A DNA stretch of 50,611 nt, taken from the IMG/VR virus record IMGVR_UViG_3300010234_000001, positions 1-50,611 of that record, one strand, 5' to 3'. Positions 4,133-46,808 of this stretch are shown here, piece by piece. Under the pieces are notes generated by a model. That model had not been told where the DNA came from and did no database searches. It was given only the letters and a program-made list of their open reading frames with translations. Source of the DNA: a virus. Its lineage: Duplodnaviria > Heunggongvirae > Uroviricota > Caudoviricetes. Position 1 is the stretch's first letter. Each line of letters starts with the position of its first letter. The position numbers were made by a program, and so were the translations under genes.

Positions 4133-4760
4133 GGACATTTGGATAATTTCGGATACCCACTTCGGTCACACAAACTTTTTAAAGTTTCGTGACAGCAACG
4201 ATAATTTGATTCGACCATTCTTCACTGTTGATGATATGGACGAATATATGGTCACCAAGTGGAATGAAATAATCAAGCCACACGACAAGGTATACCATCT
4301 TGGCGACGTGTTCTTTGGTAATGCAGACAAGGCGGAAAAAATCCTCGCGAGACTGCATGGTAAGAAGAGATTACTTCTTGGTAATCACGATATTCTGGAG
4401 AAGACTTTTGAGCATATGCCGGAATTCTCTTCGGGATGGACAGTTAAGGATAGTGTCCTTCGTTTCCATTTCGAAAAGATCATGCTTTGGCGTCCATTCG
4501 GGAAAGAGAAGATTATGCTTTCCCATATTCCGCTAAGGAAGGACCAGATGGGGCATGACGCCGGGGAATTTAACTCGGACGATCCGGATGCGCAAGCAAA
4601 GTTTTTTAAGAATTTCGTTCTGAATGTGCATGGTCATATTCATCATCAGGTTATCGATGAGCCGGAATATTACAATGCGTGCGTGGAGCACCACGACTAT
4701 TCACCCATTCACCTTGACACGCTGATAGCGGAGCGAAATAAAAGGGCTGGCGGGGGTTGA
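4125..4760 (+). CDS. calcineurin-like metallophosphoesterase
   Basis: SDTHFGH, HLGD, GNHD, SHIP, HGHIH motifs. Confidence 0.9.
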   Translation: MAKDIWIISDTHFGHTNFLKFRDSNDNLIRPFFTVDDMDEYMVTKWNEIIKPHDKVYHLGDVFFGNADKAEKILARLHGKKRLLLGNHDILEKTFEHMPEFSSGWTVKDSVLRFHFEKIMLWRPFGKEKIMLSHIPLRKDQMGHDAGEFNSDDPDAQAKFFKNFVLNVHGHIHHQVIDEPEYYNACVEHHDYSPIHLDTLIAERNKRAGGG

Positions 4761-30590: not shown

Positions 30591-31252
30591 ATCAATTCGA
30601 TTACGGATTAACCGATATAACAACCGATTCCGGGAGGATATACGTTCTCCCGGACGGAACTCAATATCCATCAGTAACTACCGTTCTAGGGCACGTTAAA
30701 CCCCAAGGGATAATTGATTGGGAAGAGCGGATCGGATTGATAGAAGCTGACAGGATTCGTGACATTGCAACATCAAAAGGTTCAAAACTTCATGATCTTG
30801 TTGAAAGATATCTTGACGGACAGAAGCCGGATCACAAAAGGGAATTCCCGGATGTTAACGCACTATTCTTCAAGATAAAATCGGAACTTGATAAGATATC
30901 CAACATCGTATGCCAAGAGGCTGCGCTATATTCGGACGAACTTAAAATTGCCGGTAGGGTTGACTGCGTTGGTAAATATAATGGGCAATACGCTATAATC
31001 GACTTCAAAACAGCATCCAAACCAAAGAAGCCGGAATATATCACCAGCTACTGTGAACAAATAACCGGATATGGGCGAATGTTTTACGAGAGAACTGGCA
31101 TAAATATCAGACGCGGTGTTATTATTATGGCATCACCAATCAAAGGCCAAGTTTTTAAGGTGCGTTTGGATGATCATATCGAATCCTTAAAAGCCAAAAT
31201 AGAAGGATACTATCAAGATGTTGAAGCTAATACTGACACTATTATTGAGTAG
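30584..31252 (+). CDS. PD-(D/E)xK exonuclease
   Basis: YPSVTTVL, G..H..VE.YL, E..LYS..IAGRVDC, IIDFKT, Y..Q..Y. Confidence 0.85.
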   Translation: MVNQFDYGLTDITTDSGRIYVLPDGTQYPSVTTVLGHVKPQGIIDWEERIGLIEADRIRDIATSKGSKLHDLVERYLDGQKPDHKREFPDVNALFFKIKSELDKISNIVCQEAALYSDELKIAGRVDCVGKYNGQYAIIDFKTASKPKKPEYITSYCEQITGYGRMFYERTGINIRRGVIIMASPIKGQVFKVRLDDHIESLKAKIEGYYQDVEANTDTIIE

Positions 31253-32315
31253 TGTTATAATTGTCGGCAGCGCATTCGCGCTTTCCGCCGATAAAACACC
31301 ATTGCCCGCCCATGCGATTGCGTATCAGGCGAGAGCGGCAACAGTCCTTATTCATGCCCATAACAACGCAGTAAAGCCATGGTGGAATGATTCGGTCGGC
31401 ACCGGATTTATGATCGATCCGAATGTATTCATCACGAATTATCACGTCTTTCCAAGATATTTTACGGACGACGTAAAGGTAACGGCGCAAACGTACAATA
31501 CGAGCCGTGAATATGAGGTTGAAGTAATTGCCGCTGATCGCTTGACGGATATTGTCATCTTTGGGATCATTGGATGGAATGAATTTAAGGGAATCGAACC
31601 ATACGGCATTCTAGAATTTGAGGAAAATCCAAAAGGTATTCAATACGCGGATATAACATACGCTTTCGGTCACCCCGGAAGGGCGGATTGGACATTCCTA
31701 AGCGGAATCGTATCTAATCCGAATGGTCATCCGGTCACCGAAATTCAACCAACCACAATGATTCAGACGAATCTAGGCATTGGACCGGGAATGTCGGGTG
31801 GTCCGGTTTTGAGTGAAACAGGAAGGGTTATTGGAATCAGTAATCAAATTATTGATGTTCCCGGAACAAACACCGGTTTTGCCATTCGTTCGGATTCGGC
31901 AATCGAAATTATTTCCGACCTGATGGATGATGATGGTGTTGTTCATTGGCCTAAAATTGGAATCGGAATGAAAGACGATCCGGATTTGCCATACACATTG
32001 ATTGAAGATGTGATTGAAGGTTCTACTGCGGATGGAATATTCCTTCCGGGGGATCAAATTATTTCCATCAATGATCGGAGCGGTGCCAGAGTCAGGGACG
32101 TTCAAGAAGAAATATGGCTATACAATTTGGGTGACGTGCTGGCGTTCGAGATAGAACGGGACGGGGAACGATTGACGAAGATTGTGATAATCAAAGAGGT
32201 TATCACATCCGAAGAATTAAATGAGTTGATTCACGTCTATACTCCAACCCCGCTTCCGCTGGTGGAAATTGCACCGCCACCATCACAACCGGAAACGGAT
32301 GACGAAAATCATTAA
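31218..32315 (+). CDS. secreted HtrA/DegP-like serine protease with a PDZ domain
   Basis: Signal peptide; GTGF, TNYHV (His), TDI (Asp), GMSGGP (Ser); C-terminal IG...GD.I.SIN PDZ. Confidence 0.85.
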   Translation: MLKLILTLLLSSVIIVGSAFALSADKTPLPAHAIAYQARAATVLIHAHNNAVKPWWNDSVGTGFMIDPNVFITNYHVFPRYFTDDVKVTAQTYNTSREYEVEVIAADRLTDIVIFGIIGWNEFKGIEPYGILEFEENPKGIQYADITYAFGHPGRADWTFLSGIVSNPNGHPVTEIQPTTMIQTNLGIGPGMSGGPVLSETGRVIGISNQIIDVPGTNTGFAIRSDSAIEIISDLMDDDGVVHWPKIGIGMKDDPDLPYTLIEDVIEGSTADGIFLPGDQIISINDRSGARVRDVQEEIWLYNLGDVLAFEIERDGERLTKIVIIKEVITSEELNELIHVYTPTPLPLVEIAPPPSQPETDDENH

Positions 32316-32369: not shown

Positions 32370-32428
32370 AATGACCGATGACGGTAATCGGAGGGAAGCA
32401 AGACCGGGGGGCGGTACCCCGCGCCTCT
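32370..32428 (+). pseudogene. relic alphaproteobacterial-type tmRNA acceptor piece without CCA
   Basis: gac-cgggg-GGCGGTA-ccccg-cgcctct followed by aaag instead of ACCA. Confidence 0.65.
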
Positions 32429-32441
32429 AAAGTAGAAAAGT

Positions 32442-32478
32442 TATAAATAGTGCATAGGAGGATAACTCTATGCACTAT
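32442..32478 (+). promoter_or_regulatory. late promoter overlapping a hairpin that sequesters the SD and AUG
   Basis: TATAAATA 32442-32449; atagtgcata 32447-32456 pairs with tatgcactat 32469-32478. Confidence 0.85.
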
Positions 32479-33006
32479 ACGATATACAAAATAACAAACT
32501 TAGTAAACGGTAAAATCTACATCGGAAAACATCAAACCAACAATTTGAACGACAATTACTATTCATCATCAAAAATTTTAATTGATGCTATAAAAAAACA
32601 TGGTAAAGATAATTTTCGAAAAGAAATTTTGTTTGATTTTGATGAAGAAGAAGATATGAATATGAAAGAAGCTGAAATTGTTTCAGAAGAATTTGTCAGT
32701 CGGCAAGACACTTACAATGTCGCATTAGGAGGGAATGGTGGTTGGTCTTACATCAACGATGGTTCCAATGAACACTTGGATAGAGCCAGAAAGGCTTCGA
32801 AGAAAGGCTTTGAAAATGCTAGAAATCACCCAAATTGGGGTAAGACATCCTTTCAAAAAGGTGATCCGAAAGTTGCGCAATTAGCCATAAAAGCAAATGA
32901 ATATAGAAAAAAATATGGTCTGACAAAAGAACATAAAAATAAAATTCGTCAAGCGTCTTTAAAAAGAGAACAACAAAGACGAGAAACTGGATACTATCAG
33001 AAATAA
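32470..33006 (+). CDS. free-standing GIY-YIG (seg-like) homing endonuclease
   Basis: YTIYKITN.VNGKIYIGKHQT, F.KEIL, E.EIV, TYN...GG.GG; paralog of 852..1481. Confidence 0.9.
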   Translation: MHYTIYKITNLVNGKIYIGKHQTNNLNDNYYSSSKILIDAIKKHGKDNFRKEILFDFDEEEDMNMKEAEIVSEEFVSRQDTYNVALGGNGGWSYINDGSNEHLDRARKASKKGFENARNHPNWGKTSFQKGDPKVAQLAIKANEYRKKYGLTKEHKNKIRQASLKREQQRRETGYYQK

Positions 33007-33007
33007 C

Positions 33008-33080
33008 GCTGACTGATAGCTCATCATAGATCGACTGGATTGTGGTATGGACCCGGTTTCGATTACCGGCATCTCCACCA
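33008..33080 (+). ncRNA. ssrA: two-piece tmRNA, acceptor piece (5' end approximate)
   Basis: gac-ccggt-TTCGATT-accgg-CATCTCC-ACCA. Confidence 0.9.
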
Positions 33081-33088
33081 AAATATAT

Positions 33089-33306
33089 GGGGATGAAAGG
33101 ATTTCGACATATACGAAAAGGAAGATTTAGGTGTTCGACAAGATGCTGTCGTTAAATAGAATCACAAACTAAACGCAAACCTAACTGCGAGCAACGACAA
33201 TGTTGCAAATAAGGGTAAGCCTTCTCGCGGAATCGTCAATGACGGTTTCGCTATTGCGGCCTAACCTATGAGCTTCGGGAGTGAGCTTGGAAACAGAATC
33301 ACTCCC
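33089..33306 (+). ncRNA. ssrA: two-piece tmRNA, coding piece; tag ANLTASNDNVANKGKPSRGIVNDGFAIAA* at 33175..33264
   Basis: GGGGATG pairs with CATCTCC including G3:U70; ...TTCGAC D-region; tag ends in AA*; 3' hairpin gggagtga-gcttggaaacagaa-tcactccc. Confidence 0.9.
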
Positions 33307-33319
33307 AACTTATTTGAAT

Positions 33320-33428
33320 CGGAAATGTATCATTAGTTTAACTAGCGGAATCTAGTCAATGCTAGGATGCAGAGAAGGCCCGACCGCTAAAGACTAGAAT
33401 GGGGGTAAGCTCTGGTGATACATTTCCG
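33320..33428 (+). ncRNA. unclassified structured RNA
   Basis: 13-bp perfect closing stem cggaaatgtatca/tgatacatttccg with internal helices; no ORF. Confidence 0.5.
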
Positions 33429-33569
33429 TGCTACGCGTTAAGGCTTTGGAGATTCTTCGGGGGATAAACTCCAACCAGTCAAATAAAAGTAATCCCTTGG
33501 TCTTTCAAGAGCTTTCGCCATAGTAAAGCTCTGTCATTTTCCCTCATACCCCTAGGAGTCTTCCATCGC

Positions 33570-46202: not shown

Positions 46203-46403
46203 TCAAGCCTCCGAAGTCCCATGGCGGTAGTAGTTCCAAATCCAAGGACTTCCACCACCGCTTAGATTTAGCTGAACAAAAAGGGTAATTCCCGAATCCT
46301 TTCCAATCTGGAAATCATAAAGGGACTTTCCCTTCTCCTTCCGGAGACGAATCTGCTTAGTCCAACGCGTCTCCGGAATTACAAAAATGATATTCATCTT
46401 CAT
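46203..46403 (-). CDS. hypothetical protein
   Basis: Tightly packed ORF. Confidence 0.55.
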   Translation of the reverse strand: MKMNIIFVIPETRWTKQIRLRKEKGKSLYDFQIGKDSGITLFVQLNLSGGGSPWIWNYYRHGTSEA

Positions 46404-46808
46404 CTACCCCCTTTCATCCAGCAATTCTTCAAGATTGGCGAGTTGCATCCCAAGTTCTTGATTTTCATTATGCATCGCCTCAAGTTCCTCCGTCAAATCT
46501 TCAACTTCATCCTCTTCGATGGCTAGATGCAAAGCCAGTTCATCATACTGGCGGGAGAGTGAATCATAGTCCGTATTCAAGTCATCAAATTCCTGACACA
46601 CTTCGGCATGGGAATGCTTCCAGCGCTCATTTTCAATTGACAAACGGATATTCTCCTTGAGTAATTCTTCAATGCCCCCCATTGCTTCAGTCAAAGCATC
46701 AACCGCAAGTTTATTATTTTCGGATAGCTGATAATTCTTAGCGGCAATTTCTTCGCTTCGCTGACATACGCCGTCGTAACGATTTCTCCAATAATCGACA
46801 TCATTCAT
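46404..46808 (-). CDS. acidic coiled-coil protein
   Basis: AAGGA SD; E/D/L-rich heptads. Confidence 0.7.
   Translation of the reverse strand: MNDVDYWRNRYDGVCQRSEEIAAKNYQLSENNKLAVDALTEAMGGIEELLKENIRLSIENERWKHSHAEVCQEFDDLNTDYDSLSRQYDELALHLAIEEDEVEDLTEELEAMHNENQELGMQLANLEELLDERG

Follow-up and report, generated by a model that had tools for sequence, protein, structure and literature searches.

A 109-nucleotide element directly after the two-piece tmRNA gene of a metagenomic phage is probably an orphan spacer hairpin outside the tmRNA

A glutamine riboswitch (RF01739) has been reported directly 3' of ssrA in phage Melnitz (PMC9004378). In the Melnitz genome (MZ577097) this riboswitch, which we confirmed with Rfam, lies at 46398–46446 (L133:6398–6446), 8 nt after the tmRNA pseudoknot, and is followed by a small ORF, the coactivator gene, gp59 and gp32, with no terminator in between. 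Since the riboswitch precedes the small ORF, this ORF is a likelier target of its control than the tmRNA, and its position indicates that the slot after the tmRNA can hold a cis-regulatory RNA co-transcribed with ssrA. No riboswitch was found beside the tmRNA in phage Mosig.

Hairpins of a different kind are found in the alpha-type two-piece tmRNA genes of marine T4-like phages, of which 17 were compared, including those of the Pelagibacter phage Mosig and the Methylophilales phage Melnitz. Here the hairpin lies inside the tmRNA precursor beside a processing site, between the CCACCA and G1, and is excised. In 16 of the 17 genes the intervening segment, 44–142 nt in length, is closed by a helix of 9–13 bp that starts no more than one base from the CCACCA and ends 2–5 bases before G1, usually with TGAT or TTGAT in that gap (L090:3541–3676, L094, L095, L096, L098, L100:5131–5223, L101, L105, L107, L112, L113, L116, L124, L125, L131, which is Mosig, and L133:6077–6218, which is Melnitz). 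The closing stems occur in at least nine sequence versions with the pairing kept, and the interiors are unrelated to each other. In the alpha_tmRNA consensus of Rfam this region is taken to be unpaired. At L106:3330–3825 the intervening segment measures 496 nt, and the arms of its closing stem, which is interrupted, flank the ORF of an HNH-type homing endonuclease (MKHLHHIIPKHMGG...). A relic pseudoknot of a different tmRNA type is present downstream, at about 4140–4195 of the same locus. The intervening segments of alpha-type genes are regions in which a covarying closing stem is kept and which can host homing endonucleases.

Processing hairpins for RNase III separate genes in phage polycistronic transcripts, for example in the T7 early RNA, and a typical RNase III substrate offers roughly 20 bp, about two turns, of near-continuous double-stranded RNA.

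The 109-nt element described here was found in the first 50.6 kb (50,611 nt, the whole stretch that was analysed and is referred to as the window) of a 178.6-kb virus record with direct terminal repeats, from a phage that is T4-like judging by the neighbouring genes. The element and the Melnitz riboswitch share the same slot, 8–13 nt past the tmRNA pseudoknot, with a small ORF and then the genes for the coactivator, gp59 and gp32 downstream, but the element is twice as long, is closed by a 13-bp helix and matches neither RF01739 nor RF01704. In architecture and size it is like the alpha-type segment hairpins, its 13-bp helix and 83-nt interior comparing with a 9–13-bp helix around a variable interior of about 20–120 nt. 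Unlike those hairpins it lies 3' of the coding piece of the tmRNA, the window's own intervening segment being only 8 nt, and it shows no sequence similarity to the intervening segments (z ≤ 2.5). A displaced native intervening segment was accordingly considered and rejected on both counts, sequence and position. With the RNase III hairpins it has in common the intergenic location, an imperfect stem-loop with a long basal helix, and a place in a presumptive read-through transcript between two functional RNAs, whereas its basal helix of 13–14 bp, or about 17 bp at most, is shorter than typical substrates of that enzyme. MITEs (about 100–150 bp, with terminal inverted repeats) are alike in that the element has 109 bp, perfect 13-bp terminal repeats and no ORF; it is unlike them in being single-copy and in lacking a target-site duplication (the flanks are GAAT and TGCT), and the assignment as a MITE was discarded.

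The element is located between the two-piece tmRNA gene and the coactivator/gp59/gp32 cluster (Table 1), and comparison with other phages indicates that this slot is hypervariable. The closest relative, L090, was found via gp59 (52% identity). Its synteny with the window extends up to the protease gene and resumes from the coactivator gene, and everything in between differs: the tmRNA of L090 is of the alpha type, an unrelated gene comes immediately after it, and the 109-nt element is absent. More generally, phage two-piece tmRNA genes are repeatedly followed by cargo of various kinds, including tRNAs, a riboswitch and orphan genes. Non-coding DNA is scarce in this phage, there being only nine stretches of at least 150 nt without an ORF (of at least 50 aa, in any frame) in the whole genome, of which 33007–33569 is the second longest. 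The GC content of the element and the following spacer is 45–48%, compared with 44% for the tmRNA, 31–36% for the orphan ORFs and 43% for the genome. The phage encodes neither an RNase III nor an SmpB.

Table 1. Features of the tmRNA locus and its surroundings, in window coordinates.
Feature	Position	Strand	Details
Trypsin-PDZ (HtrA/DegP-like) protease gene	31218–32315		Upstream of the tmRNA locus
SegE-type GIY-YIG homing endonuclease gene	32470–33006		32% GC
tmRNA acceptor piece (P2 5' strand, T arm, 3' acceptor strand, CCA)	33018–33080	+	RF04321 match; CATCTCCACCA ends at 33080
tmRNA intervening segment	33081–33088	+	8 nt between the two pieces; read from the sequence
tmRNA coding piece	33089–33306	+	5' acceptor strand GGGGATG, tag ORF 33175–33264, terminal pseudoknot
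Terminal tmRNA pseudoknot	33268–33306	+	GGGAGTGA / TCACTCCC, loop GCTTGGAAACAGAA
Degenerate T-rich tail	33307–33319	+	AACTTATTTGAAT; from comparison of tails after the pseudoknot
109-nt element	33320–33428	+	Starts 13 nt past the pseudoknot end at 33306
Closing helix of the element	33320–33332 / 33416–33428	+	CGGAAATGTATCA / TGATACATTTCCG, 13 Watson–Crick pairs, 83 nt between the arms
Local hairpin	33341–33345 / 33352–33356 (arms)	+	ACTAG-CGGAAT-CTAGT
Crossing complement	33343–33348 / 33384–33389	+	TAGCGG/CCGCTA
Crossing complement	33351–33357 / 33392–33398	+	TCTAGTC/GACTAGA
Inner stem	33370–33374 / 33410–33414	+	CAGAG/CTCTG, nested MFE fold
Inner stem	33378–33381 / 33403–33406	+	GCCC/GGGT, nested MFE fold
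Second hairpin	33446–33474	+	TTGGAGATT / AAACTCCAA
Third hairpin	33508–33540	+	AGAGCTTT / AAAGCTCT, 8 bp, 9-nt loop, then GTCATTTT
Shine–Dalgarno sequence	33554–33558	+	AGGAG, of the 79-aa ORF
Orphan ORF, 79 aa	33570–33809	+	31% GC
Orphan ORF, 103 aa	33802–34113	+	36% GC; paralog of the 79-aa ORF
gp59 helicase loader gene	34320		
gp32 gene	34987		

The tmRNA gene is permuted, with a match to Rfam RF04321 at 33018–33264 (93.4 bits) and an ARAGORN call at 32987–33355 with the tag ANLTASNDNVANKGKPSRGIVNDGFAIAA. Its intervening segment fits the scan pattern used for permuted tmRNA genes, which allowed 2–32 nt at this place. The gene is a mosaic, in that its front end is of the canonical type and its tag end and pseudoknot are of the alpha type, and a dead acceptor relic at 32402–32427 matches alpha-type genes. 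The terminal pseudoknot is common to the 17 alpha-type phage tmRNA genes, and in these the full-length match to Rfam alpha_tmRNA (RF01849) ends at the pseudoknot, at the position corresponding to 33306. The 3' end given by ARAGORN for permuted tmRNAs falls roughly 100 nt (93–106) past the tag stop in every full call (27 checked), so that this end is arbitrary and is not the end of the RNA.

For comparison we used 45 other phage two-piece tmRNA genes, made up of 26 viral permuted genes with a canonical T-loop, 16 genes picked for sharing the window's terminal pseudoknot loop CTTGGAAACAGAA, and those of L090, Mosig and Melnitz. In all 45 the RNA ends with one pseudoknot after the tag, and what follows in the relatives is a T-run, the next ORF within 20–40 nt, a tRNA or, in Melnitz, the riboswitch. 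None of the 45 has a domain after the terminal pseudoknot that is comparable to the element, and a long spacer is found only in L106, where it is unrelated to the element of the window. About half of the relatives have a clean T-run at the position of the tail, of which AACTTATTTGAAT in the window is a degraded version, and blastn finds the window similar to 130 loci only as far as 33307–33317. On these comparisons the tmRNA gene ends at 33306–33316 and not at the 33355 of ARAGORN, and 33307–33319 is likely to be its real 3' end region. The element at 33320 therefore begins where the tmRNA gene ends, which agrees with an earlier note on this DNA that had placed it right after the tmRNA. Inclusion of the element in the two-piece tmRNA itself (RF04321/RF01849) was also considered and was rejected, given that the RF04321 match ends at 33264 and the homology stops where described above.

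The pairings that the earlier note had listed are all present in the element. Its perfect 13-bp closing stem was confirmed both in the sequence and with a repeat finder, the local hairpin and the CAGAG/CTCTG stem are where the note had them, and the two long-range complements do run in pseudoknot order, crossing each other as well as the CAGAG/CTCTG stem. A G-U pair at 33333/33415 lengthens the closing helix to 14 bp. These 13 Watson–Crick pairs and one G-U pair either stack on the 5-bp inner stem or, if the CAGAG/CTCTG stem is given up, extend by two G-U and two Watson–Crick pairs to about 17 bp. The minimum free energy (MFE) of the element is −39.0 kcal/mol, and the inner stems between 33370 and 33414 have pair probabilities of 0.78–0.89. 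The two crossing complements, which are joined by AA linkers on both sides, are each worth −7.9 kcal/mol as duplexes, with pair probabilities of 0.04–0.05 in the nested ensemble. Nested folds that use one crossing helix reach −37.0 and −36.0 kcal/mol, 2–3 kcal/mol above the MFE, and a fold with the local hairpin reaches −38.5 kcal/mol, 0.5 above it. The fold energies thus bear out the proposed competition of the long-range complements with the local hairpin, and with alternatives within 0.5–3 kcal/mol of the MFE the interior has several near-equal conformations. The region has no ORF, as the earlier note had observed, with 3–8 stops per frame on both strands across 33317–33569. An intrinsic terminator was rejected as an identity for the element, which has an 83-nt loop and TGCTACGCG after the 3' arm; the scan found no plus-strand terminator here.

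Only the closing stem of the element stands out statistically. Perfect inverted repeats were counted with perfect arms and a loop of up to 150 nt, and block-shuffled genomes (n = 5) contained none of at least 13 bp and 1.2 of 12 bp per genome, whereas the real genome has 22 of at least 12 bp against about 1.2 expected, some 15 times as many as the shuffles. The whole element folds with z = −4.27 and the minus strand equally well, with z = −4.76. The interior alone gives z = −0.85, with 43 of 200 shuffles folding as well, and a crossing pair of perfect helices of at least 6 bp occurs in 1.8% of dinucleotide shuffles. All of the interior pairings are built on four CTAG palindromes, at 33342, 33352, 33362 and 33394, and a repeated CTAG palindrome by itself produces competing pairings. 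Two other repeats in the genome have a like geometry, one of 13 bp with 85 nt between the arms at 69870–69980 and one of 12 bp with 83 nt at 133925–134031, and both lie in frames that are stop-free over the repeat and 150 nt to each side. Such repeats therefore arise or persist in this genome apparently without being non-coding RNA genes. Near 169–171 kb there is a cluster of three further hairpins, at 169074–169125, 169217–169268 and 170931–170982, whose 15-bp arms are similar and whose loops are 22 nt long. Around the CTAG cores of the element, a recurrent DNA motif was looked for and dismissed, as no extended motif recurs in the genome. A CTAG-rich region of about 300 bp lies outside the window at genome positions 51381–51690, with 11 CTAG including the repeated CTAGGCGTCAT; the 500 bp inspected there have stops in all six frames, and an ORF of at least 50 aa overlaps part of them.

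The whole window was scanned with the 4227 covariance models of Rfam 15 at gathering thresholds, and nothing was found on the element. Narrow scans of 751, 276 and 205 bases at E ≤ 10 likewise placed no ribozyme, riboswitch or other family on it, and returned noise only (miRNA, snoRNA and lncRNA models at 9–15 bits), none of it centred on the element. The glutamine riboswitch models RF01739 and RF01704 gave no match at E ≤ 10 in the 276- and 205-base scans. The same procedure finds the Melnitz aptamer (RF01739, 52.8 bits against a cut-off of 35 bits), so that the negative Rfam result has a working positive control. By these scans the element is not a member of any described RNA family; the earlier note had recognised no tRNA, SRP, 6S or ribozyme signature in it.

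No homolog of the element was found by blastn against 50,697 phage records, and no second copy was found in the phage's own genome by blastn or with a covariance model of the element. The same model revealed no true homolog in 57 related loci and three large viral records, its sole match among these being the intervening segment of L100 (17 bits, E = 1.4). The stem-arm pattern had no match in genome_contigs (185,579 reference genomes) and three in metagenome_contigs, all of them long palindromes with unrelated interiors. A 16-mer from the interior gave a single chance match of 20 nt in viral_contigs, in an apparently coding sequence of a giant-virus contig, and a 21-mer from the interior gave none in genome_contigs. 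With no homolog in any collection searched, the conservation on which the proposal of the earlier note depended is lacking. The possibility that the element is a relic tmRNA, tRNA or gene fragment was dropped, with blastn, the Rfam scan and the stops in six frames all against it.

Between the element and the first orphan ORF are two further hairpins (Table 1). The element ends 125 nt before the ribosome-binding site of that ORF. Between 33447–33463 and 33549–33565 a 16-bp long-range helix is possible, which would mask the AGGAG of ORF 33570 at the expense of the local hairpin at 33446–33474; it is not significant (z = −1.33 for the region). The hairpin at 33508–33540 could, from its sequence, be a weak terminator or attenuator, and is skipped by the terminator scan as its loop exceeds the scan rule. 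In the interval from the tmRNA to ORF 33570 a simple scan predicted neither a promoter nor a terminator on the plus strand, and read-through transcription is therefore likely. The two orphan ORFs are tandem paralogs with the common motif YEI..(x)IN.EI...K, and no homolog of either was found in 5.8 billion proteins or in a profile search of 1.84 billion representatives.

It is highly probable that the element is an orphan spacer hairpin that lies outside the tmRNA. We tentatively favor, as a whole reading that may well turn out otherwise, a lineage-specific spacer hairpin that is transcribed by read-through from the tmRNA and serves, if it has any function at all, at most as punctuation for processing or stability. 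In such a transcript the element would most likely trail the tmRNA precursor at its 3' end and at the same time precede the orphan ORFs as their 5' leader. The 13-bp helix would act as passive structural punctuation, either as a double-stranded cleavage site or as an exonuclease stop, such that host nucleases could detach the coding piece of the tmRNA from the message that follows and then trim it back to the pseudoknot, in a situation where the U-tract after the tmRNA has decayed. A closing helix of 9–13 bp appears to play this role around the excised intervening segments of alpha-type genes. Taken by itself, the punctuation mechanism is rather doubtful. The spacer-hairpin reading is consistent with the position at a gene boundary, the degraded T-run, the alpha-type architecture, the scarcity of non-coding DNA, the tmRNA-like GC content and the significance of the stem. 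Against punctuation, relatives without a T-run pass straight into the next gene with no hairpin, so that one is not generally needed, and the absence of the element from all relatives means that no selection is demonstrable. In addition, a helix of 13–14 bp is short for RNase III, the phage lacks a gene for this enzyme, both strands fold equally well, and no intervening segment resembles the element in sequence. Should host nucleases indeed cut at this hairpin, it would reveal the way in which a phage tmRNA leaves a polycistronic transcript that has no terminator, and would link this release to the conserved closing helix in the intervening segments of related genes. At present the hairpin is an isolated case, unconserved and seen in one metagenomic phage.

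Almost as likely as the punctuation reading, and like it on the doubtful side, is a neutral relic, in which recombination and homing-endonuclease traffic left behind a 253-nt ORF-free spacer with no dedicated function and the inverted repeat is a mutational by-product, for example of template switching that perfects quasi-palindromes. The many long inverted repeats of the genome, two of them of like geometry and in stop-free frames, fit such an origin, as do the hypervariable slot with its break of synteny to L090 between the protease and coactivator genes, the mosaic tmRNA gene with its dead acceptor relic, the relic pseudoknot that L106 also has downstream of its tmRNA, the thermodynamically ordinary interior and the lack of homologs in the collections searched. 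It is less easily reconciled with the tight packing of T4-like genomes, in which this spacer is among so few ORF-free stretches, with a GC content that matches the structured tmRNA and not the AT-rich neighbours, with a perfect stem that shows no decay, or with the finding that no frame of the spacer resembles a gene fragment. An improbable alternative is a cis-regulatory leader for the orphan ORFs, riboswitch-like or protein-binding, with the element as the sensor and with the hairpin at 33446–33474, the competing Shine–Dalgarno-covering helix (33549–33565) and the weak terminator at 33508–33540 as the expression platform. The Melnitz riboswitch, 8 nt past the same pseudoknot, is a positional precedent for such a leader; the region is 250 nt long in a genome with almost no non-coding DNA, and the alternative 16-bp helix can sequester the AGGAG. 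However, no riboswitch family matched at E ≤ 10 although the Melnitz aptamer was found easily, a P1 of 13 perfect pairs greatly exceeds the stability that is usual for the switching helices of riboswitches, the ribosome-binding site is 125 nt away, the downstream structures are not significant, and no relative supplies comparative support.

The earlier note had proposed a co-transcribed stable RNA, a switch or a small ribozyme. That the element is transcribed together with the tmRNA is plausible, but the identity as a structured RNA finds no support in the missing Rfam match, the z of the interior or the missing homologs, and the same applies to a new ribozyme or switch. We regard as quite unlikely a previously undescribed structured RNA tied to the phage tmRNA operon, comprising the element and perhaps the following 140 nt, which could be a leader of a new kind that senses a ligand or protein and controls the orphan ORFs, or else a signal dedicated to the 3' maturation of a two-piece tmRNA that has lost its terminator by decay. 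Most unlikely is a specific folded RNA, whether a small stable RNA in its own right, a ribozyme of the small self-cleaving kind, or one more pseudoknot domain on the coding piece of the tmRNA. The crossing 6-bp and 7-bp perfect helices, rare among the shuffles, the tmRNA-like GC content and the adjoining stable RNA gene would suit it, and T4 has, next to its tRNA genes, further genes for stable RNAs whose function is unknown. Against it are the lack of a match to any ribozyme or RNA family in Rfam, which a class not yet described may escape, linkers of 2 nt on both sides that from known geometry would be awkward for a classical H-type pseudoknot, interior pairings that all rest on the repeated palindromic CTAG, the 45 other phage two-piece tmRNAs that have no domain after the terminal pseudoknot, and the lack of a predicted promoter or terminator of its own. 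An element acting at the DNA level, as a protein-binding or cruciform site with four CTAG cores bracketed by the 13-bp inverted repeat, is very unlikely. Four CTAG fall within 56 bp, against a genome average of 1.95 per kb, at spacings of 10, 10 and 32 bp, near multiples of the helical repeat and about on one helix face, and a perfect inverted repeat is strand-symmetric; the phasing, however, amounts to three spacings examined after the fact, no extended CTAG motif recurs in the genome, the arms have no second copy and there is no candidate binding protein.

The genes upstream of the tmRNA locus were also compared with those of other phages. A trypsin-PDZ protease gene is found just upstream of the tmRNA locus in L090 as well (L090:1788–2801), and its position next to the tmRNA in both phages may point to a functional link between a phage protease and tmRNA tagging; no viral relatives of the window protease were found. 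The GIY-YIG endonuclease has 48 relatives, which sit in tRNA arrays, and none of them adjoins a tmRNA. Those of L002–L012 (44–65% identity) are inside phage tRNA gene arrays. This distribution fits a nuclease family that targets tRNA-like sequence, and would explain the site of the window's endonuclease gene beside the acceptor piece of the tmRNA.
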